From the IMG/VR virus record IMGVR_UViG_2718218127_000002, positions 1 through 20,534 of that record: a DNA stretch of 20,534 nucleotides. One strand, 5' to 3'. This stretch comes from a virus (lineage: Duplodnaviria; Heunggongvirae; Uroviricota; Caudoviricetes). The position numbers were made by a program, and so were the translations under genes. Position 1 is the stretch's first letter, and each line of letters starts with the position of its first letter. Below, one piece after another: positions 2,621 through 20,534 of the stretch. The notes under the pieces were generated by a model that worked only from the letters and a program-made list of their open reading frames with translations, was not told the origin of the DNA and did no database searches.

Positions 2621-2732
2621 AACTGAAGTTGCCCTGAAAATGAAATTTTTTTGCACAACCGCAGAACTTTTCCGCAGGGCATCAGTCTTAATTAGTGCCA
2701 CTGCTTTTCTTTGATGTCCCCATTTTGTGGAG

Positions 2733-2777
2733 CCCATCAACCCCGCCATTTCGGTTCAAGGTTGATGGGTTTTTTGT
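2733..2777 (+). terminator. Putative rho-independent terminator downstream of ybjL
   Basis: cccatcaacc ... ggttgatggg inverted repeat followed by ttttttg. Confidence 0.5.
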
Positions 2778-2833
2778 TGCCTGAAATTTATACTGTTTAA
2801 AATCATGATGTTAGAAGCACTGTTTTTTAACGA

Positions 2834-2855: not shown

Positions 2856-3074
2856 TCAAAGAGAGAGCGCCACCTGTCCTGATTTCATTGGATGCGGCTG
2901 AACCGGATTTGACTCTTTTGGCGTTGCAATCGAACGAACAAAAGTTTCATGGGTAACAAAAGTATGGCTGCAGTTAATGTTCTGGCACTGGTTGTAACGC
3001 TCTTTGGTCAATGAAGATACCTGAAAACTGCTGCGAGTATGGGCGGCACTTCCACACAGTGGGCAAATCATCAT
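2856..3074 (-). CDS. ogr: Ogr/Delta-family zinc-finger late-gene transcriptional activator
   Basis: 72 aa from ATG at 3074 with GGGAGA about 9 nt upstream; CPLCGSAAH...CQNINCSHTF matches the C2C2 zinc-finger pattern of P2 Ogr (CPLCQHAAH...CQNVNCSATF from memory). The longer 83-aa track ORF adds an N-terminal extension without an SD. Confidence 0.85.
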   Translation of the reverse strand: MMICPLCGSAAHTRSSFQVSSLTKERYNQCQNINCSHTFVTHETFVRSIATPKESNPVQPHPMKSGQVALSL

Positions 3075-3164: not shown

Positions 3165-4265
3165 TCATTCCATTTCGAAATCATCAATCCTCACTTCAAG
3201 CTCCAGACTGGTCGTAAAACCGTTATCCGGGCTGACGGTATGTGTCAGAGTCGTAATGGTCCATTCCGCATCATCTATCGGCTGTTTAAAGCCACTGACC
3301 TTCACGGGCATTTCCGTGTAGAGATCTGCCCGCCCTTCCGCCAGTTGTAGCGAGAATGACGCAACGCCGCGTTGCAGGCGTTCCCACTGCATTTTCGCCG
3401 CTCGTTCGGCGTTGCTCCGGTTGGCATAAGTGCGATTAAGTACCAGCACGTTTTCATCCGTACCCACCAGGTAATCGCCCTGCTTCGCTTCCGGCTCTTT
3501 CTTCTGCTTCTTAGTCCTGCGCTTACGCTTCACCGTGGTGCTTTCTTTCTTCGCGGGTTCGCGGGTATGCAACCAACTGGCAATTACGCCCGTATAGGCT
3601 CCGCGATCTGCCAGGGTAAAGCGGTGACTGTCGCCGTCCTTACGTGTGATAGTGATCACCGGTAGTGGTTTACCGCTGGCGCTTTTACCCTGTCCCTGCC
3701 GGATGAATAACAGATTGCCATTTTTCACCGACGCAATAGCACCGTACTGGCGCGCCAGCCGCATCAGAAAACTGCCGTCACTCTCATTGGTCTGGTCTAT
3801 ATGTTCCACGGGTTTATCTGACAGGTCTTTACCCAGTGCCATCTTCAGTTTGTGCCGCACAGCTATTTCCTTCACCACTTCCCCGACAGTGGTCTTGTGC
3901 CACGACTTTTCACGGCGGGTATTCAGCGTTTCCCGAAAATCAGCACTTCGCGCCCGGATAGTCAGGCGGTCCGGTGCGCCAGTGTGTTCAATCTCGTCCA
4001 CCGTGAATGCCCCTTTCGGGAAAAGCGGCTGCCCCTTCCAGCCCAGCGCCAGCGTAATGACCGCACCACGGCGCGGCAGCGCTATTTTTCCATCGGCGTC
4101 GTCCAGCTCCAGATCAAGCTGGTCCGCTTCAAAGCCCCGATTATCCGTCAGCGTCAGACTCATCAGGCGGTTATCCAGCACAGTGGTGATATCCCTGCCC
4201 TCAATACTGATGCTGAATGCGGGAGTTTTGTTGCCTTTGTTAAGCAGTTCAGAGCTGAAATTCAC
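3165..4265 (-). CDS. D: P2 gpD-like tail protein (late control gene D)
   Basis: 366-aa ORF immediately upstream of ogr and downstream of U, size and position as P2 D; GTG start directly after U stop; lysine-rich segment KRKRRTKKQKKEPE typical of this family. Confidence 0.8.
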   Translation of the reverse strand: MNFSSELLNKGNKTPAFSISIEGRDITTVLDNRLMSLTLTDNRGFEADQLDLELDDADGKIALPRRGAVITLALGWKGQPLFPKGAFTVDEIEHTGAPDRLTIRARSADFRETLNTRREKSWHKTTVGEVVKEIAVRHKLKMALGKDLSDKPVEHIDQTNESDGSFLMRLARQYGAIASVKNGNLLFIRQGQGKSASGKPLPVITITRKDGDSHRFTLADRGAYTGVIASWLHTREPAKKESTTVKRKRRTKKQKKEPEAKQGDYLVGTDENVLVLNRTYANRSNAERAAKMQWERLQRGVASFSLQLAEGRADLYTEMPVKVSGFKQPIDDAEWTITTLTHTVSPDNGFTTSLELEVRIDDFEME

Positions 4266-4747
4266 GACAGCAGCCCTCCCACCGTTTTACTGATATCGCT
4301 TAAGGCAGACGTTGCCGTGTCCTGCAGATTATTCAGTTGCGCACTGAGATCACCGAACATATCGGACAATGATTCATCCACCCTTTTGAGCGACAGGGTG
4401 AACTCAATCCGGCGCGGCATACCGTCGCGGAAAAACTCCGTTTTAGTCTGATTCAGTCCCTCAATCACATACATGCCATAAATCGTGCCGCTGCCTTCAA
4501 TCAGGGGCCATGCTTTCCCCTGTTCTGCCATCTGCTCCAGTGCCAGCAACGACAGCCTGCCACCTGTTATCTCCGGCATAAGAACACCGGAAAGCGTCAG
4601 CATGTCGTTGTCCGGTCCCAGAAACTGCGTGGACGGACGTCGGTTTACCCGGCTGTTTGCCGCATGTCGCCAGCTGCGTTGATACTGCAGCTCCTGATAC
4701 GGCACGGTGCGCAGCATAAACACGTACAATCCCAGCACCATCATCAT
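4262..4747 (-). CDS. U: P2 gpU-like tail protein
   Basis: 161-aa ORF between T and D, ATGA start/stop overlap with T; size and position as P2 U. Confidence 0.8.
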   Translation of the reverse strand: MMMVLGLYVFMLRTVPYQELQYQRSWRHAANSRVNRRPSTQFLGPDNDMLTLSGVLMPEITGGRLSLLALEQMAEQGKAWPLIEGSGTIYGMYVIEGLNQTKTEFFRDGMPRRIEFTLSLKRVDESLSDMFGDLSAQLNNLQDTATSALSDISKTVGGLLS

Positions 4748-7700
4748 GCGTCGTATCCCCCCTGATCGCTGTAGTTACTCCTGGCTTTTGCCTTCAGCCT
4801 GCGTTCACGTTCATCAAGCTGGCGGGCCACCTCCCGCGCAATATCCTGCGCACTTTGTCCTGGCTGCGTCTGAATGATGATCTGCATCGGTGCCTCAATC
4901 CGTTGAACGGGCGGCACAGTGGCTGCACGACTCACCATCGCTTCGCCGCCTTTCGCGGGAAGTGCCAAAGGGTGCAACGGTGGAAGCTCTGCAGGCGCGG
5001 CAGCAACGCCCATCATTCCGGCAACAACGGCAGCCAGTGCAGCTGTATTTCTCCGGCTGGTCACATTTGCCGGGCCGTTAACAATTTCCGGCCCGTTTTC
5101 ACCGACGATGCCAAACTGCCCGCGCGGGATATAGCCGCCGCTGTCATACATCCCCGCAAAGCCATATCCCCATGATGGAAAACCACCCGATGGCATCATC
5201 ACTTTACCGTCTGCATTCACCGTCGCAGGTTGCTGACGCGTCACGCTTTCCGGCAGTTTTGCCTTTGCGGCCTCTTTACTGACAATGCCGAGCTTCTCCA
5301 GCAACCAGGAAACGCCGGATTTCAGGGAGTCCAGCGGATGCATGACCATATTCAGCCCTTCCGCCAGTGCCTCCCCGAATCGCCGCCCCATTGCCGCTGC
5401 GCTCTGCAGTTCGGCAGAGGTCGACTTAACGGGCGTCAGCAGATCAGTAAACCAGCCCCACAGCGCCTGCACTTTGTCGCCAATCCACTGGAACACGGGC
5501 TTAAGCGGTTCGAACGCTGCACTGATGGGACCTGCCGCCGCTTTGAATCCTTCCACCACGCCACCGAGAAATGCGGTGATGGGTTGCCAGTATTTCCAGA
5601 CAACCAGCGCCACGCCCGCCAGTGCAGTAACCACAAGACCTATCGGACTGAGCAGAGCACCTAACAGACCAGATATGGCATACAGGGCAACGCGCAGCAT
5701 CGCCAGTGGACCAGATGCCAGTACTCGCAGCACCGTGCCTGCGGCGGCCAGTCCACCGCGCAGTACCGCCAGAGGATTCATAAACATCACAGCAACAGCA
5801 CGTAAACCGGATAATCCAGACCGCAAAAGTGCAACCGGCGCACCTGCTACAGTTTTCAGGACATTTCCCGTCAGTGATGCCGTGCGGCGCAAAGACGACA
5901 ACGGCGCAGTAAGTAAACCTGCGGCGTTGCCCGATGAAGCAAGCCCGCGTCGCAGCAGTGCCAGTGGTGCGCCAGCCAGCCAGGACAACGCGCTGCTGGT
6001 TCGAGTTACTGCTGCCGTAACGGAAGATAACGTTTTGATACCCAACACAGAGAATCCCAGACGGATCACTGCCAGCGGCCCCAGCACTGCAGCCAGCGCC
6101 ACCGCTAAGGTGCCGAGGCCGACGGTAACCGCAGCCACAACAGCCGATGCTTTCATCAGTGTGCCTGTCAGTTCCGGGTTAGCTTCCACCCAGCGGCGCA
6201 ACGCTCCCGTGATGCTTTTCACCGTGTACAGAATATCCATCAGCGGCTGGCGCAGCGTTTCGCCCAGGCTGCTGAAGGTGTTCTGCGCTCCGGTTTTGAC
6301 CAGCAACCACTGCGCAGAAAGTGAATCCTTGTTAATGTCGGATTCTTTCTGCATGGAGCCAAGCGCATCATTGCCCGCTGTCAGTTTTAACTGACGCTGC
6401 AGTTCCGGCAGGTTGTTTGCCAGTTTCGCCGCGTCATCGCCAAACTCTTTACCAAACAACATAGTCATGGCAGACAGGCGCTTGTCCTGCGGCAGCGCGT
6501 TTACCTTCTCCAGCACGCGCTGGATGGTTCCCATCGCATCCTTCGTCATCTGCTTTTCAATCACTTCAGGATTGAGTTTCAGCAGATTCATCCCTTCAAA
6601 GAAACTCTTGCTTTGCATGGTGGCAATGGACAATTCACGCACCATCGCGTTTGCTGCACTGGCTGCAACCTCTGGCGCAGCGCCCAGTGTCAGGAAGGTG
6701 GAACCCAGCGCCGCCGCTTTACGATAATCCAGACGGTCAGCCACACCGCCCAGACGTTGCATCACATCAATGATGTCTGCCCCTTTCGACATGGCGTTAT
6801 CATCCAGATAGTTCAGCGCATCACCGAGCTGTTCAATATTGCGGGTGGGGATTTTGTAGAGCTGGGCGATTTTCCCCAGACTTTCTGACAGTTCATCCGC
6901 TGGCAGCTCAAAGGCTGTTGCCGCCTTTGCTGCCGTACTGGCGAAGGCCAGCAGGTCACGTTTCTGATCTTCCCAGCTGTCGTCAGGGTTTGCGACGTTC
7001 ATGCGCGCACCACCTTCAACCAGTGCAGCGAAGTCCACCGCACCGTTTTCCATCGGCAACTGTTCGCTGGCAGCCTTGATGGCATCCTGCATTTCATAAA
7101 AACGTGCAGTGCGGTTGCCATTATCGTCACGCAGACCATTGACCTGCTTTGCCACACCTTTCATGGCATCTTCCATGCTGGTATAGCTTTTTACTGCCGC
7201 CATCACTGGCGCACCCATTGCCAGCCCTGCAGCCGTGGTGGTGGCTCCGGCACCTGCAATACGATCACGCACCTCCAGCGAACGGGCATAACTGGCACGC
7301 GCTGCATTCATCCTGCGCTGAGCTTCCCCCAGTCGCTTCAGCCGCGCCTCCTGTTTCGAAAGTTCCTGGTTATAACGTGATGTTTCACGGGCTAAACGGG
7401 CAGTTGCTCCCGCATCGTCTTTCGCAGAAATTCCCGCCCGGTACAGTTCAGCACGCACAAGCGCCGTCTGCTGCTGCAGCTTTTTCTGGCGTTCTTCCAG
7501 GCGCTGAACAGCCAGCCGTTGACGGCCCAGAGCAACAACCTGACGTTGCGAAGGCGGCCCCATCGCTCCCAGTTCCTGACTGAGCAAATTTGCACGCTGG
7601 CGGGCATAGTTCAGCCTGTCGCCTAATTTCTGATTTTCTGCCTGCAGCTTTCGGAAGCTGTCCAGACTGCTCCCGGCCTGATCAAGCTGCTTTATTGCAT

Positions 7701-7821
7701 CGCGGGATTTTTTGACAGCAGCAGCCAGTTCTCTTGAACTGGCCTGCGCAGATCGAAATGGGCGGGTGAGCTTGTCAACCGCATTAAGAATGACCTGCAG
7801 ACGCAGGTTGTTATCACTCAT
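4744..7821 (-). CDS. T: Tail tape-measure protein (P2 gpT-like)
   Basis: 1025-aa ORF; N-terminal coiled-coil-like region rich in Q/R/A/L, central hydrophobic Ala/Leu/Gly-rich repeat block, position upstream of U and D; ATG start at 7821. Confidence 0.85.
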   Translation of the reverse strand: MSDNNLRLQVILNAVDKLTRPFRSAQASSRELAAAVKKSRDAIKQLDQAGSSLDSFRKLQAENQKLGDRLNYARQRANLLSQELGAMGPPSQRQVVALGRQRLAVQRLEERQKKLQQQTALVRAELYRAGISAKDDAGATARLARETSRYNQELSKQEARLKRLGEAQRRMNAARASYARSLEVRDRIAGAGATTTAAGLAMGAPVMAAVKSYTSMEDAMKGVAKQVNGLRDDNGNRTARFYEMQDAIKAASEQLPMENGAVDFAALVEGGARMNVANPDDSWEDQKRDLLAFASTAAKAATAFELPADELSESLGKIAQLYKIPTRNIEQLGDALNYLDDNAMSKGADIIDVMQRLGGVADRLDYRKAAALGSTFLTLGAAPEVAASAANAMVRELSIATMQSKSFFEGMNLLKLNPEVIEKQMTKDAMGTIQRVLEKVNALPQDKRLSAMTMLFGKEFGDDAAKLANNLPELQRQLKLTAGNDALGSMQKESDINKDSLSAQWLLVKTGAQNTFSSLGETLRQPLMDILYTVKSITGALRRWVEANPELTGTLMKASAVVAAVTVGLGTLAVALAAVLGPLAVIRLGFSVLGIKTLSSVTAAVTRTSSALSWLAGAPLALLRRGLASSGNAAGLLTAPLSSLRRTASLTGNVLKTVAGAPVALLRSGLSGLRAVAVMFMNPLAVLRGGLAAAGTVLRVLASGPLAMLRVALYAISGLLGALLSPIGLVVTALAGVALVVWKYWQPITAFLGGVVEGFKAAAGPISAAFEPLKPVFQWIGDKVQALWGWFTDLLTPVKSTSAELQSAAAMGRRFGEALAEGLNMVMHPLDSLKSGVSWLLEKLGIVSKEAAKAKLPESVTRQQPATVNADGKVMMPSGGFPSWGYGFAGMYDSGGYIPRGQFGIVGENGPEIVNGPANVTSRRNTAALAAVVAGMMGVAAAPAELPPLHPLALPAKGGEAMVSRAATVPPVQRIEAPMQIIIQTQPGQSAQDIAREVARQLDERERRLKAKARSNYSDQGGYDA

Positions 7822-7879
7822 CGTTGGCCCCGCTTCTCTGAATCGCTTTATACCGCCATTCCAGCACTTCGGTCAGGCG

Positions 7880-8497
7880 TGCATGGTGGACAGCTGGGAA
7901 GTCTGGACCGACTTTCATGCACTGGCCCTGCGCCCGTTTGGCTGGCGCGAAGTATGGATCGGTTATGACCCCGCAAAAGGTACTCAGAACGGCGACAGTG
8001 CCGGATGCGTGGTGGTGGCACCGCCAGCCGTACCGGGCGGTAAATTCCGCATTCTTGAGCGTCACCAGTGGCGCGGGATGGACTTCCGCGCTCAGGCTGA
8101 CGCCATCAAAAAACTGACCGAACAGTACAACGTGACTTATATCGGTATCGACTCAACCGGCGTTGGTCACGGGGTTTACGAGAACGTGAAAGCATTCTTT
8201 CCTGCCGTCCGGGAGTTTGTCTACAACCCCAACGTTAAAAACGCCCTGGTGCTCAAGGCCTACGACATTATCAGCCACCGCCGTCTGGAGTTTGACGCCG
8301 GACACACCGACATTGCGCAGTCATTCATGGCAATCCGTCGCGCCACCACCGCCAGCGGCAACCGCCCGACCTATGAAGCCAGCCGCAGCGAAGAAGCCAG
8401 CCATGCCGATCTGGCCTGGGCAACAATGCACGCACTGTTTAACGAACCGCTGCAAGGCGAGTCCGCCAATACCAGCAATATTGTGGAGATTTTTTGA
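7880..8497 (+). pseudogene. P: 5'-truncated terminase large (ATPase/nuclease) subunit gene, P2 gpP-like, C-terminal nuclease domain only
   Basis: Open frame encodes only about 200-260 aa with RNaseH-like nuclease-domain acidic motifs (WIGYDPAKG, YIGIDSTGVG, SHADLAWA) and an ATGA overlap with the Q start, as in P2 P-Q; the N-terminal ATPase domain is absent and the frame runs into the divergent T gene start. The 5' boundary is approximate. Confidence 0.7.
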
Positions 8498-9522
8498 TGG
8501 GAAAGAGTAAGAAGAACCGCGCTGCGGCGACGAAACAGATCCAGCTTAAAAGTCAAACTACAGCCGAAGCATTCAGCTTCGGCGATCCCGTTCCTGTTCT
8601 GGACCGCCGAGAACTGCTGGACTATGTGGAATGCGTACAGACAGATCGCTGGTATGAGCCGCCAGTAAGCTTTGACGGACTGGCGCGCACCTTCCGCGCC
8701 GCCGTGCATCACAGTTCACCAATTGCGGTGAAATGCAACATTCTGACCAGTACCTACATCCCTCACCCGCTGCTCAGCCAGCAGGCTTTTTCACGTTTTG
8801 TGCAGGACTATCTGGTATTTGGTAACGCCTACCTGGAGAAACGCACGAACCGCTTCGGTGAAGTTATCGCCCTTGAGCCTGCTCTGGCAAAATACACCCG
8901 ACGCGGGTTAGACCTGGATACCTACTGGTTTGTGCAATACGGTATGACAACCCAGCCGTATCAGTTCACGAAAGGCAGCATTTTTCATCTGATGGAACCG
9001 GACATTAACCAGGAGATCTACGGCCTGCCCGGCTATCTTTCTGCCATTCCGTCCGCCCTGCTCAATGAGTCCGCCACGCTGTTCCGCCGCAAGTATTACA
9101 TTAACGGTAGTCATGCAGGCTTCATCATGTACATGACCGATGCTGCGCAGAACCAGGAGGACGTGAACAACCTCCGCAATGCAATGAAAAGTGCCAAAGG
9201 TCCGGGTAACTTCCGCAACCTGTTTATGTACTCGCCTAACGGCAAAAAGGACGGGCTTCAGATTATCCCGTTGTCAGAGGTGGCGGCGAAGGATGAGTTT
9301 TTGAATATCAAGAACGTGAGCCGCGATGACATGATGGCTGCGCACCGCGTGCCGCCGCAAATGATGGGGATTATGCCTAATAATGTTGGAGGGTTTGGGG
9401 ATGTGGAGAAGGCCGCAAATGTGTTTGTGCGCAATGAACTTTTGCCATTACAGAAACGCATGGAGGAGTTAAACCATTGGCTGGGTGAGAAAGTTATTGC
9501 ATTTTCATCCTATTGTTTATGA
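8497..9522 (+). CDS. Q: Portal protein (P2 gpQ-like)
   Basis: 341 aa from ATG at 8497 (GGAG 8 nt upstream, overlaps P stop); size and position match P2 Q downstream of P. Confidence 0.8.
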   Translation: MGKSKKNRAAATKQIQLKSQTTAEAFSFGDPVPVLDRRELLDYVECVQTDRWYEPPVSFDGLARTFRAAVHHSSPIAVKCNILTSTYIPHPLLSQQAFSRFVQDYLVFGNAYLEKRTNRFGEVIALEPALAKYTRRGLDLDTYWFVQYGMTTQPYQFTKGSIFHLMEPDINQEIYGLPGYLSAIPSALLNESATLFRRKYYINGSHAGFIMYMTDAAQNQEDVNNLRNAMKSAKGPGNFRNLFMYSPNGKKDGLQIIPLSEVAAKDEFLNIKNVSRDDMMAAHRVPPQMMGIMPNNVGGFGDVEKAANVFVRNELLPLQKRMEELNHWLGEKVIAFSSYCL

Positions 9523-9531
9523 GATATAAAT

Positions 9532-9573
9532 TGGTGGCCTTAATTATATAGCCACCATATTGCTTTTTATTTT
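9532..9573. terminator. Putative terminator between convergent Q and TIR gene
   Basis: tggtggc / gccacca inverted repeat with AT-rich loop followed by tattgctttttatttt on the + strand. Confidence 0.4.
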
Positions 9574-10379
9574 ACTCTAAAGGCATCATCGGCTTTATGT
9601 GGTATAGGAGCATAACGCTCGGTACTTACTCGATGTAGCACCGCAAATATATTCAAAGGTGAACCATCCTTTAACCTAAGAGAAACATACATTGGCATCG
9701 TTGGTGTTAACCCCCGATTTAGGCCAACAGTGGCACCACTTACTTTCATACCATTTTCTAAAGATGCATTTTCAATAAACCCCTGAGTGAATGTGCTTTC
9801 TCCATTGACCATAACAACAACATCATCATGCTTAATTGTATTATCCATAATCATCATAAAATCAGCAATTGGTTCTAAAAAATCCATTGCTGATAATTTC
9901 ACTATCTTACCCCCATCACCATCCTTAATATCATAGGAGAGGTTTGAATACTTCTCAGGATTAGGAATATACGTATTTTGTTGATTAATGACATCTATAA
10001 TTTGTCTTATTGCCACATCGATCCCATACGAATAAAGATCAATATATAGCGTTTGAGTAAGCAGAGCAGGCAAGGATATATTCTGGCAACGTATTGGTAT
10101 AAATTTACACTTCCCGGACGATGCCTTAATTAAAGCATTTTGCCATTCCATTTTTACCATGTTACTTGCCAAACTATTTTCTGTGACAAAAAAGAAAAAG
10201 AACGATACATTCTCCATTCCTAAATTCATCTTGTCAATAATACCCTCTCCGGGTTGGATAGACCAAGAATCGTAGAATACGTTATCACGCCCATAAACAT
10301 CTGCTAGTTTTTCCGCTATAACACTTACAAACCTTTTGTCACGGTGATTATGACTTAGAAAGATCATAGCATGCCCCAT
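9567..10379 (-). CDS. TIR-domain protein with uncharacterised C-terminal domain (candidate defence protein)
   Basis: N-terminal 140 aa show the bacterial TIR pattern: IFLSHNHRDKRFV (betaA/alphaA), NVFYDSWSIQPGEGI, VSFFFFFVTENSLASNMVKMEWQNAL (hydrophobic strand, then Ser-x5-Glu where the catalytic Glu is expected). Start is either ATG 10379 or ATG 10367. AT-rich relative to the phage backbone. Confidence 0.6.
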   Translation of the reverse strand: MGHAMIFLSHNHRDKRFVSVIAEKLADVYGRDNVFYDSWSIQPGEGIIDKMNLGMENVSFFFFFVTENSLASNMVKMEWQNALIKASSGKCKFIPIRCQNISLPALLTQTLYIDLYSYGIDVAIRQIIDVINQQNTYIPNPEKYSNLSYDIKDGDGGKIVKLSAMDFLEPIADFMMIMDNTIKHDDVVVMVNGESTFTQGFIENASLENGMKVSGATVGLNRGLTPTMPMYVSLRLKDGSPLNIFAVLHRVSTERYAPIPHKADDAFRVK

Positions 10380-10448: not shown

Positions 10449-10467
10449 ATCGTATCCCCGCCACGCC
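10449..10467 (-). other. cos-like cohesive-end sequence (putative packaging site remnant)
   Basis: Minus-strand sequence GGCGTGGCGGGGATACGAT; the first 13 nt are identical to the 19-nt cohesive end I recall for phage 186 (GGCGTGGCGGGGAAAGCAT; P2 GGCGAGGCGGGGAAAGCAC), 16/19 overall; lies in a GC-richer segment between two AT-rich genes. Confidence 0.45.
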
Positions 10468-10667: not shown

Positions 10668-11837
10668 TTACCAATCCATGTTTGCGGCATTATCCATCTC
10701 ACGAGTTAAGTAATTAACAAATAAGTCCATATTCCTTTCTGATTTCATCGCCTCCGCATAGGTTCCATTAGTTACGTAAGATAGTATTAAAGGACATCCA
10801 GATTCAATATAAATTTTTGCTGGGGACAGTTCTCCCTGCCACAAATTTTCAAGAAAATCGTTAATTAATTGCATTGCTTCAGGTGCCAAAAAATGCACAC
10901 CATTTCCAAACTTGAAACGTTCTTTATTTTCTCGATGAGGCAGCAATAGTGGCACAGCCCCTACACTTGAGTGAAATTCCAATGCTTGCCCATCCTTACC
11001 GAAGGCGCCATGGGCTACAAAATTACGCACCTGTTTTCTGAGTATAAGTAAACGATCATAGAACAATTTTAGACTGGAAGAGTTAATATCAATGGCTAAT
11101 TTGAATTTCTCCCCCCATTCTTTTCCAACTTTATCAGCCACATCATTCCCATTTTTTATCTCACCCTTCAAGATTGCAATAAGAATGAAAACATGCTCGG
11201 TCCAATTGAAAAATGACTCAATTGCAGACGTTGCTAACCACATAGCCTCTCTTCGGAGTTCAATTATCTTATTTGATTGTTCAAAAGTGGATTGTAACAG
11301 GCTGAAAAAATTATCAGACTTAAACTCACTATCAACTTCCAGTTTAGACTCTTGGCCAGCAGCAACTTCATCAAGCTTCTGTTTATATAGCTCTAAAAAA
11401 TAGCAAAACCTATCATAAAGAGAATTAGCATTGTTATTAACATTTAGATTTGAAGTCTTTGCTGCATTGTCTGCAAGCGAGTCAAAAAAATTCGTAGCAG
11501 CTTTAACCCCTGCGCAAATATGTCTCAAAACAGTTTTAGCTTGCTCTATATCATCATCACTCTTGATAAATATATCTAAACCAAGTTTACGATGTTCTAT
11601 AATTACGACAGTCCCATCAATCCGGACTGGGATAGAAAAAGAAATCTTCTCATCAACCCCACGATTTTTAAATTTCAGTAAATCTACCAAAAGAAAATAA
11701 ACGAGATAATACGGAGGTAATGAGTCTCCCAAACCCGAGCGCTTACCCCAAAAATATTCATCAAGCTCGGCAGACTCCATTGTCCCTATGACTCTTCGGA
11801 CGCGTTCTTCAACTTTAGCCAGATCCATTCCCCACAC
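10668..11837 (-). CDS. Hypothetical protein with HEPN-like R-N-x3-H motif (candidate abortive-infection/defence effector)
   Basis: 389-aa AT-rich ORF; motif RNFVAH at residues 271-276 (nt 11010-11027) fits the Rx4-6H HEPN signature with polar residue after Arg; no Walker A, SIR2 or other motif recognised by eye. Start is either GTG 11837 or ATG 11828. Confidence 0.45.
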   Translation of the reverse strand: MWGMDLAKVEERVRRVIGTMESAELDEYFWGKRSGLGDSLPPYYLVYFLLVDLLKFKNRGVDEKISFSIPVRIDGTVVIIEHRKLGLDIFIKSDDDIEQAKTVLRHICAGVKAATNFFDSLADNAAKTSNLNVNNNANSLYDRFCYFLELYKQKLDEVAAGQESKLEVDSEFKSDNFFSLLQSTFEQSNKIIELRREAMWLATSAIESFFNWTEHVFILIAILKGEIKNGNDVADKVGKEWGEKFKLAIDINSSSLKLFYDRLLILRKQVRNFVAHGAFGKDGQALEFHSSVGAVPLLLPHRENKERFKFGNGVHFLAPEAMQLINDFLENLWQGELSPAKIYIESGCPLILSYVTNGTYAEAMKSERNMDLFVNYLTREMDNAANMDW

Positions 11838-12340: not shown

Positions 12341-14755
12341 TTAATACAGGTTCCGCCACTTATCATCTTCCCACAAACGCTGGTTCCGATAGAAGATACG
12401 CAAGCCTGCTCCTGACGGAATACTGCCGCCGCGAAGGAGTAAATCGACCTCTTTCTCGCTGCCATCAAATCCTCTGGACTTCAGCTCATAGACGAGCTGC
12501 AGTCGCTGATGGTCTGTAATTCGCTGTTTGTAGTCTTTACGCCGTTTCGGTTTAACCAAGCGTAACCTTGCTGCCAGTTCCCGGCGCTCTTTTTTGCTCA
12601 TACTGTGCAGGTAATCGTGCAACTCCTTGTCATCCATGCGGGTAATGTCCGTTCTGGTGTCCCCATCAGCTGATTTATCTTTCTCCTGTTGGTTCAAATT
12701 TTCAGCAAGGGGACAGTTATTGCCACGAGTCCAAGGGGCGCAAGCGCCCTGGTCGGCTGCCGCCTCCTGAACATCAACGGCCTTACGAACCATTTTCCAC
12801 TTCACGGCATGAGTGCAGATCTTGCCCTCTGCAATAGGTGACCAGATGCCATAAATACGAATGCCGTGATCGCCATAGGCGGTCGGCTCTTCGTTGATTT
12901 CATAAGCGGTTCTGATGAGGTGATATTTGCGGGGAACCAGTACGCCGCCCTGCTTCATGATGTAGGTGGCAAAACAACCAGCATCAGCAGCAGCCAGGAT
13001 GGCATCAAGGCGTGGGTTATCCAGTACCGGCGCACCTGCTTTTTTGTCCCCCTGTTGCCTTGCCGCCTGACCAGCCAGCAATCGCAGTTCACGGTAAGCC
13101 TGACGCCCCGGAATGCCAAAGAAGCGGAATTGCTGAACACGATGCAGAGACGCCCAGGCATTAACGTATTCAGCATTATCACGCAGGGATTTCCCCGTTT
13201 CCTTGCTGATCTCGCCAGCCAGACCACGCCCGTCAATGTTCTTACTGATGTATTTCGCGATGTAGCTTGTTGGCGTTCCTTTGCGCGGGTTAATCAACTC
13301 AGACTTAAAGCGCGGCCCAGTGTTATTGCCCAGCTCCTCGCGGTCTTCACGGATGGCAAACTTACGCAGTAATGCAGTGATGGCACGGCGGTCTTTTTTG
13401 CGCATGAAACACAACAGGTGCCAGTGAACTGTGCCGTCATGATGCGGCTCAGCCACCCGCACGCCATACCAGCGCAACCCGGCTTTGTGCATCGCCTTAC
13501 GAAATGCAGCAAACATGCCGACCAGATAATCGCTGCTTTGTCTTACCGTCGCGTTTGTCCAGGTCGGGTTTGGTCTGCCGTTATTGAGCGTGGAATGGAA
13601 ACGTGACGGACAGGTGATGGTGTAGAAAACGGCGCAGTCACCGCGCATTTCCGCGATAAGCTCCAGACCTTTAACACAGGCCATCATCTCATTGCGGCGA
13701 TGCGCCGGGTTGCTGCTGCTGGCGTTTACCACATCCTCCATGTCCAGCGTGTCGCCGTCTTCGTTCACCAGTTCATGAGAACGGAAAAACTCCAGCGACT
13801 TACGGCGCTGCTCACGTTTATGCATCACGGCTTCATAGCTGACATAGGGAGATGCTTTTTTGCTGACCAGGCAGACAGCACGCAACTGCTCTTCCCGCCA
13901 TTCGCAACGCATCTTCCATAATTTCCGATACCACCAGTCGGCGCACAACATACGCGCCAGCGAACCCGGAATGAGTTCATAGGGCACGGGTTTACGGCGG
14001 TTTCTTTTCCGACGGAGTTGCTCAAACGCAGGAGGGATTACATCCAGACGCAGGGTTTCCGCTGCCACCTTTTCCCATGTCTTGCGGATTTCTTCTGGCT
14101 TAACGTCATCGGTGGCATACAAATCACCACAAGCTGCATCAAGGCACATGCTCATATGCGCGGCAACAAGGGTAGACAGGCGCTTCACCTGATCCTGACT
14201 CATTTCAGGCAGGATCAGCAGGCCGTCCAGCCCTTCATGGCTTGCCATAAAGCGAAAAGAAGTGGATAGCTGACTCTCGCGTACATGCTCCAGTCGTTCC
14301 AGACATGGCTTAATCGTCTCACGCAAATAGCGGGAATAAGCCTTTGGCCTGCCCAGGCTGCTGAAGTATTCAATACGTTGCATCAGCGGCTTGCTGATAT
14401 GGGAAGGCTGGGCGTTGACGTCCGCCAGAATGACCATATCCGGATTAAAACGCTGCTGCTCATGCGCCAGCTTTGCCCGACTAATGAGCTTATCCTGCTC
14501 GATTTCGCGCTGGACAGGATCACGGGATTCATTAAAGAAATAACGCTCCCAGACCTGATCACTCAGCGCCTCACGGCGCAGCTGTTCCTGCTCGTTATCG
14601 GCAGCGTACAGAGTGATCAGGTTTGAAAGCGCAGAAACCGGCGCAACTTCCGCCGGGTCCAGATAAGGGTTAATGGCCTTTTTCGGGCTGCTCCATGAGA
14701 ATGCTGCTGCGACCTCGTTAAAGCCGCTGCAGTTGTTCATATCAGCATGGCTCAT
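12341..14755 (-). CDS. A: Replication initiation endonuclease (P2 gpA-like rolling-circle initiator)
   Basis: 804-aa ORF with HUH-type motif (HWHLLCF) and downstream tyrosine motif ([12 protein letters not shown]) characteristic of P2 A-type nicking proteins; ATGA overlap with the upstream methyltransferase gene. Confidence 0.82.
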
Positions 14756-17188: not shown

Positions 17189-17410
17189 CTAGTTGAATAC
17201 AACATTGCAATCAGTAAGTGCATCAACGGTAAGAGCAGCAAGGTTGATCATTACCTTTTCTCTTTTCTTGTCTTTCCGAAGGCGATGCCGAGGGATGCGA
17301 CCGTCAGCCAGCATATCGTTAATTGTGTCGATTGAAAGACCAGTAAGTTCGCTATAACGCTCAATTGTGACATGTGGCGTATTCAGGGTTATTGAAATGT
17401 TAGGGGTCAT
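17189..17410 (-). CDS. cox: Cox-like excisionase/early regulator
   Basis: 73-aa basic protein divergent from the repressor gene; [28 protein letters not shown] resembles the DNA-binding region of phage Cox-family proteins; AGGAGA SD. Confidence 0.6.
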
Positions 17411-17498
17411 GATGCAACATCTCCTATTGGCTTGTGGTGAGTCAGTTTTAATCGTGGCTTTAACTTCACATTTCGGAGAATGGGATCACAAATCGGTT
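17411..17498. promoter_or_regulatory. Lysis/lysogeny switch region (divergent cox and repressor starts, presumed operators)
   Basis: Intergenic region between divergently oriented cox and repressor genes; contains the 10-bp sequence tcacatttcg (17466-17475) repeated at 17515-17524. Confidence 0.45.
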
Positions 17499-18434
17499 AT
17501 GTCAACACATGAAATCACATTTCGCCATGTGGACGAAAAAAAGAAATCCTTAATCATGCAGAATCGCGGAGGGCAATCGGTTATAGATCGGATACTGAAA
17601 GCCTATGGTTTTTCTTCCCGACAAGCATTCTGTAATCACCTAGGTATATCGCAAAGTACAATGGCGAACAGGTATGCCCGTGACACTTTCCCTGCTGATT
17701 GGGTTGTTATCTGTAGCATGGAGACTGGAGTGCCGGTCGAGTGGTTGGCATTTGGCACTGATACCGAGAAGGGAAGCATTACAAATAATGCAGAAAAAAG
17801 TCACAACAATTGTGACAGCAAGCATCAACATCTCAATAGAGAACAAGACATCCAAAATGAGAACTCTTTTACTATTAACCAAGGTGGAAAAGCAGCAATA
17901 GAGCGAATCGTTTTGGCTTATGGATTTAAGACAAGACAAGCTTTAGCTGATCATATTGGTGTATCAAAAAGTACATTAGCCAATCGTTACATGAGAGATA
18001 CCTTTCCTGCTGACTGGATTATTCAATGCTCACTGGAAACCGGTGCTTCATTAACATGGCTAACCACTGGTAACGGGGCAATGTTTGAAAAGCCTCGAAA
18101 CGATACTATCACTATCCCATATCATAAAATAATTGATGGATCTCTTGCTCAAGAAACCTTCTTGACTTTTGACTCTAAGTTGTTAGAAGGAACCTTTCTG
18201 CAACCTTTAGCAGTATTCATTGATGAGGAAATATATATTGTAGAATCAAAATTTAATGAAGTTACTGATGGCAAGTGGCTTGTGAATATTGAAGGGAAAA
18301 TAAGTATCAAAGATTTGACTCGCATACCCGTTGGTATGGTTAAAGTTGTAGGCACTAACGCAAGTTTTGAATGCTTACTTACTGACATTATCGTTTTGGC
18401 AAAATGTAAAAGAGTTTTTACTAAAAATGTATAA
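17499..18434 (+). CDS. Immunity repressor with tandemly duplicated CI-type (phage 186 CI-like) N-terminal DNA-binding domain
   Basis: Two about 63-aa internal repeats (residues encoded at 17568-17756 and 17883-18074) share the pattern GG-x-IxRI-AYGF-RQA-HxG-S-ST-ANRY-RDTFPADW-CS-ETG-WL; divergent from cox. The region upstream of ATG 17499 in the track ORF looks non-coding. Confidence 0.6.
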   Translation: MSTHEITFRHVDEKKKSLIMQNRGGQSVIDRILKAYGFSSRQAFCNHLGISQSTMANRYARDTFPADWVVICSMETGVPVEWLAFGTDTEKGSITNNAEKSHNNCDSKHQHLNREQDIQNENSFTINQGGKAAIERIVLAYGFKTRQALADHIGVSKSTLANRYMRDTFPADWIIQCSLETGASLTWLTTGNGAMFEKPRNDTITIPYHKIIDGSLAQETFLTFDSKLLEGTFLQPLAVFIDEEIYIVESKFNEVTDGKWLVNIEGKISIKDLTRIPVGMVKVVGTNASFECLLTDIIVLAKCKRVFTKNV

Positions 18435-18445
18435 AGAGAAACATC

Positions 18446-19390
18446 ATGACTGAACCAACCAATAAAGATAGCGAAATAAAAAAACACCTATTAGAATTTC
18501 TTGATTCACAGTCTGAAAATATAGCAAAACACTTCTACTCTCATATAAAAGACTTAATAGAAGCAGGAGAGCTTTCTGAAGCTCATAATAACCTAGCGCT
18601 AATTGAAAAATACATAACTAGGCCACCGATGGATGAAGAACCCAATATAAATGAAAATAAAGCCAATAAAAGAAAAAATGTAAAATCACTTGAACCTAAT
18701 AATTATGTAGAACATATAATACAATTAGAAGAACGAAACAGCATATTAACTCTACAGTTAGAGCATTATACTCAGGATCTTAATAGAAAAAACGCAATAA
18801 TCGAAAACAACGTAAAACAAATTAATTCATTGATTAGTGAAAATAAGGAACTCCGTAGCCAAGTACAGCAACAAAGAATCGATGATAAAATCCCCACCTA
18901 TGTTAACGATGTTAAATCAGATCTTGGTAGTGATGACAAACATTTTATATTGATGTCTATTATCTGGTCTATTGCAGGGGTATTTTTTGGCTTCCTTGCA
19001 GTAGTATCTGCTTTTTTTACATTATACATGAACTTAGATTTAAAAAATCTCACTAACCTTCAGTTAATATATATCTTCACGCGAGGATTAGTTGGAATCG
19101 CCATTCTTTCATGGCTATCATATATCTGCCTTAGTAACTCAAAAAAGTACACACATGAATCGATCAGGCGAAAAGATCGTCGACATGCTTTGATGTTTGG
19201 TCAAGTTTTTTTGCAGATATACGGTTCTACAGCAACTAAAGAGGATGCAATAGAAGTCTTTAAGGATTGGAATATTTCAGGTGACTCTGCATTTTCAGGT
19301 CAGACAGAGCAACCACCGAGTTTTGCGTCATTTTTGAATACAATCAAAGACAAAGTTAAAGTAACTGGAAGTGATAAAGAAACAGATTAA
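18446..19390 (+). CDS. Hypothetical coiled-coil protein with two predicted transmembrane helices
   Basis: 314-aa AT-rich ORF 11 nt downstream of the repressor gene; heptad-like N-terminal region and two hydrophobic stretches (ILMSIIWSIAGVFFGFLAVVSAFF and GLVGIAILSWLSYICL). Confidence 0.65.
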   Translation: MTEPTNKDSEIKKHLLEFLDSQSENIAKHFYSHIKDLIEAGELSEAHNNLALIEKYITRPPMDEEPNINENKANKRKNVKSLEPNNYVEHIIQLEERNSILTLQLEHYTQDLNRKNAIIENNVKQINSLISENKELRSQVQQQRIDDKIPTYVNDVKSDLGSDDKHFILMSIIWSIAGVFFGFLAVVSAFFTLYMNLDLKNLTNLQLIYIFTRGLVGIAILSWLSYICLSNSKKYTHESIRRKDRRHALMFGQVFLQIYGSTATKEDAIEVFKDWNISGDSAFSGQTEQPPSFASFLNTIKDKVKVTGSDKETD

Positions 19391-19456: not shown

Positions 19457-19480
19457 GCCCTCTGATATGAGGGCATTTTT
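19457..19480 (+). terminator. Hairpin plus T-run immediately upstream of int (terminator or translational control element)
   Basis: gccctc-tgatat-gagggc stem-loop followed by attttttat; the 3' arm GAGGG is also the int Shine-Dalgarno. Confidence 0.5.
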
Positions 19481-19481
19481 T

Positions 19482-20534
19482 ATGGCAGTACGAAAACTCA
19501 CCACAGGAAAATGGCTTTGCGAATGTTACCCCGCCGGACGTAGCGGACGCCGTGTGCGTAAACAATTCGCCACCAAAGGCGAAGCACTGGCCTTCGAGCG
19601 ATACACCATGGGGGAAATAGAAGCAAAACCCTGGCTGGGCGAATCAGTGGATCGTCGGACACTGAAAGATATGGTTGAGCTATGGTTCAAATTACATGGC
19701 AAATCTCTTACTGCCGGACAGCATGTCTACAACAAGCTGCTGTTGATGGTTGACGCCTTGGGAAATCCCCTTGCAACTGATCTCACCTCAAAAATGTTTG
19801 CTCACTATCGAGATAAACGCCTGACAGGCGAGATCTACTTCAGCGAGAAATGGAAGAAAGGAGCAAGCCCGGTCACCATTAACCTGGAGCAAAGCTATCT
19901 AAGTAGTGTTTTTAGCGAACTATCCCGTTTGGGCGGATGGTCGTATCCGAACCCACTGGAGAACATGCGAAAATTCACCATCGCAGAAAAAGAGATGGCA
20001 TGGCTTACCCATGAGCAGATTGTTGAATTGCTGGCTGATTGCAAACGTCAGGACCCAATTCTGGCACTGGTAGTTAAGATATGCTTAAGCACAGGCGCAC
20101 GCTGGCGTGAAGCCGTAAATCTTACCCGCTCACAGGTGACCAAATACCGAATTACCTTTGTCAGAACGAAGGGGAAGAAAAACAGAAGCATCCCTATCAG
20201 TAAAGAGCTTTACGAAGAGATCATGGCGCTCGATGGGTTCAATTTCTTCACAGACTGCTATTTTCAATTTTTATCCGTGATGGAAAAAACGTCTATCGTG
20301 CTCCCTCGCGGTCAACTCACACACGTTCTGCGCCATACGTTTGCAGCGCACTTCATGATGTCGGGTGGAAACATTCTGGCCTTACAAAAAATTCTCGGAC
20401 ACCACGATATAAAAATGACTATGCGTTACGCACATCTGGCACCGGATCATCTGGAAACGGCGCTCCGTTTCAATCCTCTGGCAACGCTGCCAAGTGGCGA
20501 CAAAGTGGCGGCAGCGGTTGGCATTACCCCGTAA
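19482..20534 (+). CDS. int: Tyrosine integrase (P2 Int-like)
   Basis: 350 aa from ATG 19482 (MAVRKLTTGKW, like the P2 Int N-terminus MAIKKLDDGRY from memory); catalytic motifs TGARWRE, HVLRHTF and MRYAHL. Confidence 0.85.
   Translation: MAVRKLTTGKWLCECYPAGRSGRRVRKQFATKGEALAFERYTMGEIEAKPWLGESVDRRTLKDMVELWFKLHGKSLTAGQHVYNKLLLMVDALGNPLATDLTSKMFAHYRDKRLTGEIYFSEKWKKGASPVTINLEQSYLSSVFSELSRLGGWSYPNPLENMRKFTIAEKEMAWLTHEQIVELLADCKRQDPILALVVKICLSTGARWREAVNLTRSQVTKYRITFVRTKGKKNRSIPISKELYEEIMALDGFNFFTDCYFQFLSVMEKTSIVLPRGQLTHVLRHTFAAHFMMSGGNILALQKILGHHDIKMTMRYAHLAPDHLETALRFNPLATLPSGDKVAAAVGITP
20495..20516. repeat. Putative att core copy (int-proximal)
   Basis: tggcgacaaagtggcggcagcg, 21/22 identical to 2834-2855; lies within the last 13 codons of int. 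Confidence 0.45.

Follow-up and report, generated by a model that had tools for sequence, protein, structure and literature searches.

The locus examined here raises the question of how the tape-measure gene T of a prophage came to lie next to the 3′ part of its terminase gene P, a linkage that the original prediction had attributed to a single large deletion. The locus occupies positions 7822–7960 of the window, by which we mean the whole 20,534-nucleotide (nt) stretch of tailed-phage DNA (Caudoviricetes) given as IMG/VR record IMGVR_UViG_2718218127_000002. The window element is a P2/186-like (Peduoviridae) prophage, as seen from its family-specific Pfam domains and its gene order: the succession ogr–D–U–T … P–Q–cos … A … CI–int matches the P2/186-like set and is colinear at 94–100% identity with intact prophages. 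The interval is the scar of a 15,394-bp deletion, and the event was probably begun by a recurrent site-specific strand break in E′, with subsequent one-sided degradation and microhomology joining.

Mapping of the deletion

The intact prophage at the same chromosomal site in Escherichia coli SOI121 (locus L002) was used as the reference, and positions in it are given as L002 coordinates. The 15,394 bp missing from the window extend from L002 4610 to 20003. The window aligns with SOI121 at 97.8% identity up to window position 7884 and at 99.4% from window position 7874 onwards; the right flank, which enters P from L002 20001, is 100% identical to SOI121 over its first 400 nt. Since both flanks are 98–100% identical to the intact reference across kilobases, the deletion is not a matter of chance.

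One end of the loss lies inside the 3′ end of the E+E′ tail-chaperone open reading frame (ORF), 52–54 nt upstream from where T starts; the other lies at codon ~382 of P. In SOI121 coordinates it covers the rest of E, FII, FI, a Cin-like invertase gene, the tail-fibre genes, I, J, W, V, S and R, and also lysC/B/A, the lysozyme and holin genes, X, L, M, N, O and the first ~381 codons of P. The deleted block thus comprises every head, lysis, baseplate, fibre, sheath and tube gene as well as the position of the second P2 cargo hotspot (G–FI, Z/fun). A single internal deletion of ~15 kb that removed the morphogenetic and lysis block together with the Z/fun position had been predicted, and this is borne out by the SOI121 alignment and the gene content. 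The window element is a defective prophage formed by internal deletion, with flanks colinear with an intact relative at the same locus.

The left parental site reads ...CACTTCGGTCA|GCGGCAT..., the right parental site ...GAGCTGCA|GGCGTGCATGG... and the window ...CACTTCGGTCAGGCGTGCATGG... across the joint. Alignment to a complete relative, which had been suggested as a way to find microhomology, places the crossover in a 3-bp CAG at 7874–7876 that is common to both parental sites in SOI121. No filler DNA, insertion sequence (IS), transposase ORF or rearrangement was found at the junction, in line with the earlier statement on IS and transposases; each base between E′ and P′ was traced to one of the two parents. 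Given its 3 bp of shared sequence and its lack of filler, recombinase site and mobile element, the joint is that of a textbook microhomology-mediated illegitimate deletion.

To the left of the crossover, the last 19 codons and the stop codon of the E+E′ ORF remain at 7814–7875 on the minus strand (Pfam Phage_P2_GpE, detected on ORF 7814–8065); this remnant overlaps the T start at 7821 and is identical to the intact gpE sequence up to GGTCA. To the right, P resumes at codon ~382 (7877–8497, plus strand) within an open frame spanning 7712–8497, in which the first in-frame ATG, at 7883, would give a protein of 204 residues. The complete RNaseH-like nuclease domain is present in this frame (Pfam Terminase_6C, 3.7e-50), so that the nuclease-domain half of P does follow the T start as predicted. 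A direct fusion of T to P holds only in part: the homology to P begins at 7874, and between it and T lie positions 7822–7873/5, which are the last 52–54 nt of the E+E′ ORF.

Searches for the exact window junction gave no match in 5,426 complete E. coli genomes, IMG/VR or the JGI metagenomes; it was found only in assembly GCA_003300595.1, one contig of which matches the window at 100% identity over 18.5 kb, and this assembly is probably the source of the window. This restriction to one assembly is what would be expected if the junction were an assembly artefact of the source genome. We regard an artefact as extremely unlikely, given that at least ten finished genomes, produced by different laboratories, have comparable junctions at this very base and that both flanks run colinear with a real prophage located where it is expected on the chromosome. 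A comparison with other strains had been suggested, to see whether the deletion is shared. The exact junction was found only in GCA_003300595.1; the left breakpoint, in a way that the original prediction did not anticipate, is common, base for base, to many independent deletions in other strains.

The 1025-residue T protein of the window is encoded in identical form by many intact prophages at the same locus. From this identity, the absence of the junction elsewhere and the 100% identical right flank, we conclude that the deletion is recent and lineage-specific. A single event is the parsimonious reading, given the clean junction without filler and the identical T in intact prophages; against it stands the recurrence of the left end as a breakpoint, from which successive deletions could also start. 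What is left is an element of ~17.9 kb that still carries its integration genes and attachment (att) site (int, att), immunity (CI) and replication genes, cos, Q and cargo, including a TIR-domain gene. For practical purposes it is predicted from its gene content to be a non-lytic, non-particle-forming remnant.

A recurrent breakpoint in E′

Junctions were mapped against SOI121 for every deletion locus that could be found. About 24 E. coli records have a disrupted site. Ten of these were identified, eight of them by reading the sequence itself and two, H6 and TBE6, by inference from matching hit patterns. The left crossover of the window, CA at 7874–7875, is common to eight other left-anchored junction types and to one reciprocal, right-anchored type. 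The nine left-anchored types, window included, have the same left end, ...CACTTCGGTCA (also read ...CCATTCCAGCACTTCGGTCA), and nine different right ends. These lie at L002 5132 in FII (EC581), 5717 in FI (F829), 5982 in FI (FORC_082), 13914 in lysB/C (EC71), 18291 in O (H5 and the IMG/VR locus L127), 19858 in P (TST3), 20003 in P (the window), 20283 in P (AST205) and 25202 in A (the IMG/VR locus L126 and MB19). In the mirror-image junction, found in CP032237, ^GCGGCATAAC... (^GCGGCAT...) and everything to its right are kept and joined to the middle of D, with loss of T and U.

At the intact E′ site the left 30-mer ends in CCATTCCAGCACTTCGGTCA and the right 30-mer begins with GCGGCATAACGTCAGTAACGG; from all the junctions jointly, the break can be located in GGTCAG either at the C/A step or at the A/G step that follows. 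The partner sites of the left-anchored junctions read TGCA, CTCA, GTCA, TGCA, GCCA, CCAgc, TTCAgc, CTCA and GTCA, so that CA precedes the join in nine of nine, where chance would give it at 1/16 per site. The partner of the right-anchored junction is TA, not CA. The anchored junctions other than that of the window share 1–5 nt at the crossover, and beyond CA the partner sites are no closer to the E′ site than are random CA positions (P = 0.13). On the degraded side the loss ranges from 0.5 to 20.6 kb, and the retained side is kept to its last base. Ten junction types thus cross over within the same 2–3 nt of a 33-kb genome. Taken alone, the window deletion is routine prophage decay; it is the recurrence of one deletion endpoint at a single base that is unexpected, and it is statistically overwhelming. 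A particular site, fragile or cleaved, thus seems to be behind decay in this phage family.

Random illegitimate recombination, with a left breakpoint shared by chance or through selection for T–U–D with a minimal upstream region, is very unlikely to have produced this pattern. Non-anchored deletions with 0–11 nt of microhomology are indeed common in the same prophage family, and a weak promoter-like pair, CTGACC–18 nt–TATAAA (window 7840–7876, minus strand), starts exactly at the breakpoint and faces T. However, selection sets a boundary and not a single base, whereas the ten junction types coincide within 2–3 nt; T is frameshifted in H5, F829 and MB19, and is therefore not maintained; and a consensus promoter scan calls no promoter at the site. 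As a separate observation, the AST205 join turns the promoter-like CTGACC into TTGACC.

Two sequence features of the site were recorded. The E/E′–T overlap (L002 4455–4740, corresponding to window ~7720–7875 and the deleted side) is conserved at 92–100% identity across ~1000 E. coli prophages, and this block is sharply bounded, the T genes directly to its left differing by up to ~20%. The hexamer TCAGCG occurs at the E′ site (L002 4606; window 7873–7878), at 19990 in P, with two to five endpoints nearby, and at 656 in D, where only 2 nt separate it from the breakpoint at which the right-anchored junction enters D. TCAGCG is a possible recognition motif, picked after the data had been seen and present in 21 copies on that prophage strand.

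Frequency and independence

The left arms of the anchored loci (1.5 kb left of the site) fall into at least three diverged T alleles, with ~93% identity between two of the groups and ~80% (ungapped) to the third. Two of the three T-allele groups also contain a locus with an intact site. The right arms of the anchored loci carry different cargo genes, and the strains originate in Japan, Thailand, France, Korea, Cuba and China, with human, pig and poultry sources represented.

To estimate how often the site is disrupted, a 331-nt query with the intact site at its centre was compared with the 5,426 complete E. coli genomes. Either flank was present in 1004 E. coli records: the left in 1000, the right in 984 and both, contiguous, in 980. 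Some 20 records had the left flank only and about four the right flank only; two records were sampled among the incomplete matches at the bottom of the ranking, and in both the match stopped at the site. The region is therefore present in approximately one in five complete E. coli genomes, and left-anchored truncation in ~2% of those. In IMG/VR, intact sites numbered more than 120 and left-anchored junctions two, and scans for right-anchored (reciprocal) junctions found none. In all 71 phage genomes with the region (71/71) the match was uninterrupted and in a single piece, and scans of metagenomes for anchored junctions found none.

These counts bear on a further explanation, that a mobile element formerly resided in E′ and took flanking DNA with it on aberrant excision, either as an IS under the action of an excision enhancer or as a serine or tyrosine recombinase element with a CA core. 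Such an element would account for the fixed end, for variable partners that share CA, for both anchoring directions and for the fact that no element is left. It is nevertheless a distinctly improbable source of the junctions. No E. coli record has the two flanks split by an insertion (980 with both flanks, 980 with both contiguous), the 71 phage records are likewise in one piece, IMG/VR offers only deletion junctions besides its intact sites, and the partner of the right-anchored junction is TA. The IS2 present in VE-V10-F was considered and rejected; it lies in the dam gene, away from the E′ site. Nor was any insert that could be a homing-endonuclease gene or intron found between the flanks in the E. 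coli genomes or phage records, a result that is still compatible with a nuclease encoded elsewhere.

Origin of the proposed break

In the sequence of events that we favour, a strand break would occur in E′ at GGTCA^GCGG, or else a single base further left, and would be recurrent in this phage family. The left end would remain untouched and the right end would be shortened by a processive exonuclease over a variable distance, here 15.4 kb. The intact 3′ terminus (...TCA-3′) could then anneal to at least two complementary nucleotides on the partner end, and the join may be sealed by alternative end-joining or copied across by template switching. Selection would presumably favour cells that had lost the lysis genes (holin, lysozyme) and the structural genes through the deletion. 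The excess of left-anchored junctions is plausibly explained in this way, as left-anchored loss removes the holin, lysozyme and structural genes; erosion in the other direction meets host genes after ~5 kb and leaves the lysis cassette, which would keep right-anchored products few. That loss is either zero or of kilobases fits an exonuclease that loads on an end or does not. Many deletions in the family extend from D or T into P (for example in GF31, VE-V10-F and L252–L260) and so take out the E′ site with erosion on both sides of it, as kilobase-scale resection of both ends from an E′ break would give.

Several points weigh against this reading. The strand break is read from the anatomy of the junctions, no nuclease, nickase or recombinase acting at the E′ sequence was identified, and the site is unlike the att core, the gpA origin (ori) nick site and cos. 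The nine-to-one excess of left-anchored types is partly a matter of ascertainment, several of the searches having begun from the T side, and otherwise has only the argument from selection to explain it. A near-identical left arm is present only in the window, H5 and L126, and these three could be successive events in related elements.

The break might alternatively be linked to replication: the HUH endonuclease gpA would nick a pseudo-origin on the displaced strand, or synthesis would stop or start preferentially at the site, and template switching or strand transfer would follow. The break and the ori nick share a strand, and the sequence of the site on it, GCT^GACC, can be set beside the ori of this phage (CTTG^GACTCG) and of P2 (CTCG^GAGTCC). 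The P2 nick is annotated at 29892 (GCGCCTCG^GAGTCC), and alignment to it locates an ori-like nick sequence, CCCTTG^GACTCG, ~2.0 kb into gene A of the window. Two partner sites read ^GAGTC and ^GACT on the ori-nick strand, and pairing of the terminal 2 nt fits primer realignment. However, the E′ site and the ori agree at ~10 of 28 positions, which is near random, with only ^GAC and a few flanking bases shared. There is no ori-like 14-mer at the site and no 14-mer in gene A with three or fewer mismatches to the site, and the junction that falls in gene A is 1,300 nt into the gene, the nick being at ~2,020 nt. By reasoning, a nick met by a leftward chromosomal or phage fork would yield the right-anchored end, which is the minority class. 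On balance, we consider an origin in replication unlikely.

Self-targeting by CRISPR-Cas3 was weighed in the same way. A protospacer just right of the break, of type I-E (ATG protospacer-adjacent motif, PAM) or type I-F (CC PAM), would be followed by rightward degradation, and the survivors would have lost PAM and seed. Suitable PAMs do lie 2–4 nt from the break, on a strand that fits the direction of deletion. Against this, no array in the 5,426 complete E. coli genomes carries such a spacer in either of the two registers tested, the best repeat–spacer–repeat match being at most 90% identical and in two pieces, and Cas3 deletions are not known to start at a single base. We hold this explanation to be highly improbable.

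Further candidates were examined and rejected. Action of the integrase at a secondary att site was discarded, since the att core is unrelated to the E′ site and the partners are no closer to it than random CA positions; a search of AST205 for an att repeat found none. Cleavage by terminase at a cos-like site was discarded because the E′ site is unlike cos. Comparison by eye with consensus sequences showed no gix- or cix-like half-sites at the crossover, and, among sites for type IIS and type III enzymes, Tn5, IS10 and IS911 ends, lox, dif and the Tn10 target GCTNAGC, none that fits both the cut position and the right-anchored junction. Chi (GCTGGTGG) is absent from both strands of the prophage, which argues against an endpoint defined by Chi and RecBCD. 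The potential for a hairpin or cruciform at the site is not significant (z = −1.8), and a search for inverted repeats returned nothing relevant.

Returning to a site-specific break, GGTCA^GCGG in E′ may be the target of a sequence-specific nuclease or nickase supplied by the host, a plasmid or a competing phage, with repeated loss of the lysis and structural genes from resident prophages as the outcome; we put this forward tentatively, as a possibility and not as the expected answer. In the usual picture, prophages decay through random deletions on which selection then acts; here a widespread prophage family breaks repeatedly at an exact, sequence-defined position. If a specific enzyme is responsible, it would represent a newly recognised way for cells or competing elements to inactivate P2-like prophages with the defence cargo kept, and if cleavage is directed, prophage domestication in this family would be directed and not random. 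Even if the cause is structural, the E′ site would serve as a ready-made assay for illegitimate recombination in natural populations.

Comparison with known systems

A defective P2/186-like prophage is a known kind of element, ogrK–D′ being the P2 remnant of E. coli K-12; the single-base recurrence of an endpoint resembles nothing familiar to us for this family. Defective P2-like prophages that keep their defence hotspots have been described (Rousset et al., 2022, PMC9122126; NAR, 2026, PMC13586616). In the latter study, 'likely defective' P2-like elements have defence genes near-identical to those of intact phages, and 'no obvious pattern' is reported in the loss of core genes (PMC13586616). 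The window family is similar in that core genes are lost and cargo is intact; it differs in that one breakpoint recurs to the base.

In phage lambda, deletions of the b2 type are made by Int between attP and secondary sites. They resemble the E′ junctions in their common endpoint, variable second ends and very short crossover homology. In contrast, the E′ anchor is not att, the att core being the 3′ end of rybB, and the partners share only CA. Deletions anchored at the nick site have reportedly been obtained in rolling-circle replicons (M13, the pC194 origin). There, too, one end is fixed, at the nick, and the other has little homology, and P2 likewise uses an HUH nickase; however, the fixed end in E′ is 17–20 kb from the ori and unlike it.

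Alternative end-joining is said to operate in E. coli, and it shares with the present junctions the 1–5 nt of microhomology, the large asymmetric loss and the lack of dedicated non-homologous end-joining proteins. It would explain the joining only and not the constant phosphodiester of the E′ break. Deletions next to IS629 are reportedly promoted by an IS-excision enhancer; in these, as in the E′ loci, the loss of DNA is anchored at one site, there the insertion site, with the element and adjacent DNA removed, whereas no IS was present at the E′ site in ~1000 E. coli records or in 71 phage genomes.

Wider decay of the prophage family

The 204-residue truncated-terminase ORF (window 7883–8497) was found in 254 blocks of the protein collection. 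In the 24 contigs read (L251–L260 among the loci) it has at least nine different left partners, including D, T, FII, fibre genes and P itself. Right endpoints are very common in the ~90 nt of P upstream of the ATG of this ORF and are bunched at L002 19933–19938 and 19979–19992; this clustering is at least partly an artefact of selection on the call of the 204-residue ORF.

A second accumulation of endpoints was seen in the 3′ third of gene D (L002 225–709, window ~3490–3975), where six independent endpoints fall within ~500 nt (L254, L255, L258, L260, L251 and EC581). This suggests either a second preferred region or a limit set by the keeping of ogr and attR. Among the remnants in F829 (L249), FORC_082 (L272) and EC581 (L273), some contain two or three separate internal deletions, one of them anchored at the E′ site. 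Multiple internal deletions in one remnant indicate that decay proceeds stepwise within a single element.

Layout of the element

The window opens with the host genes grxA, ybjM and ybjL, followed by the prophage, and its last base is that of the integrase stop codon. The prophage sits in the 3′ end of the small-RNA gene rybB (2700–2778, plus strand; Rfam RF00110, 105 bits), adjoining ybjL. The 14-nt att core repeat ATGGGTTTTTTGTT (2765–2778) is the end of the rybB terminator, so that insertion of the phage rebuilds the 3′ end of rybB. The same 14-mer is found beside int in SOI121; the copy in the window is attR, the right-hand prophage boundary, and attL of the window's own element lies just outside the window.

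Genes that had been described as complete (ogr, D, U, T, Q, A, CI and int) proved to be so, with lengths equal to those in intact relatives. On the minus strand, in order of position, are the late-gene activator ogr (2856–3074, Pfam Ogr_Delta), the coordinates of which agree with the annotation of near-identical loci, gpD (366 residues, 3165–4265, Phage_GPD), gpU (161 residues, 4262–4747, Phage_P2_GpU) and the tape-measure protein gpT (1025 residues, 4744–7821, PhageMin_Tail). Beyond the P remnant, the portal gpQ is encoded at 8494–9522 (plus strand, Phage_portal). The sequence GGCGTGGCGGGGATACGAT at 10449–10467 (minus strand) resembles the P2 cos region and is taken, from its likeness to P2/186 cos, to be a retained cos-like cohesive-end sequence. 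The replication endonuclease gpA (804 residues) occupies 12341–14755 on the minus strand (Phage_GPA). The CI-type repressor lies at 17367–18434 (plus strand, Phage_CI_repr and Phage_CI_C) and is of double length, a 355-residue ORF with two Phage_CI_repr helix–turn–helix stretches (within 17367–19390, plus strand). The full-length integrase (19467–20534, plus strand; Int_N and Phage_integrase) closes the window.

Complete E. coli genomes in the collection cover at most 79% of the window, because the cargo genes vary among strains. The defence-like cargo noted in the original prediction is indeed kept: a TIR-domain protein of 270 residues (9567–10379, minus strand; TIR_2) is encoded between Q and cos. 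It is also present in SOI121 and has weak PADLOC matches to TIR-NLR, PDC-S66 and ThsB. A second cargo ORF, of 389 residues (10668–11837, minus strand), lies between cos and gene A, is missing from SOI121 and gave no Pfam or PADLOC match. The third variable slot, between CI and int, holds a 314-residue ORF of no significant family in the window and a KAP P-loop NTPase gene in SOI121.

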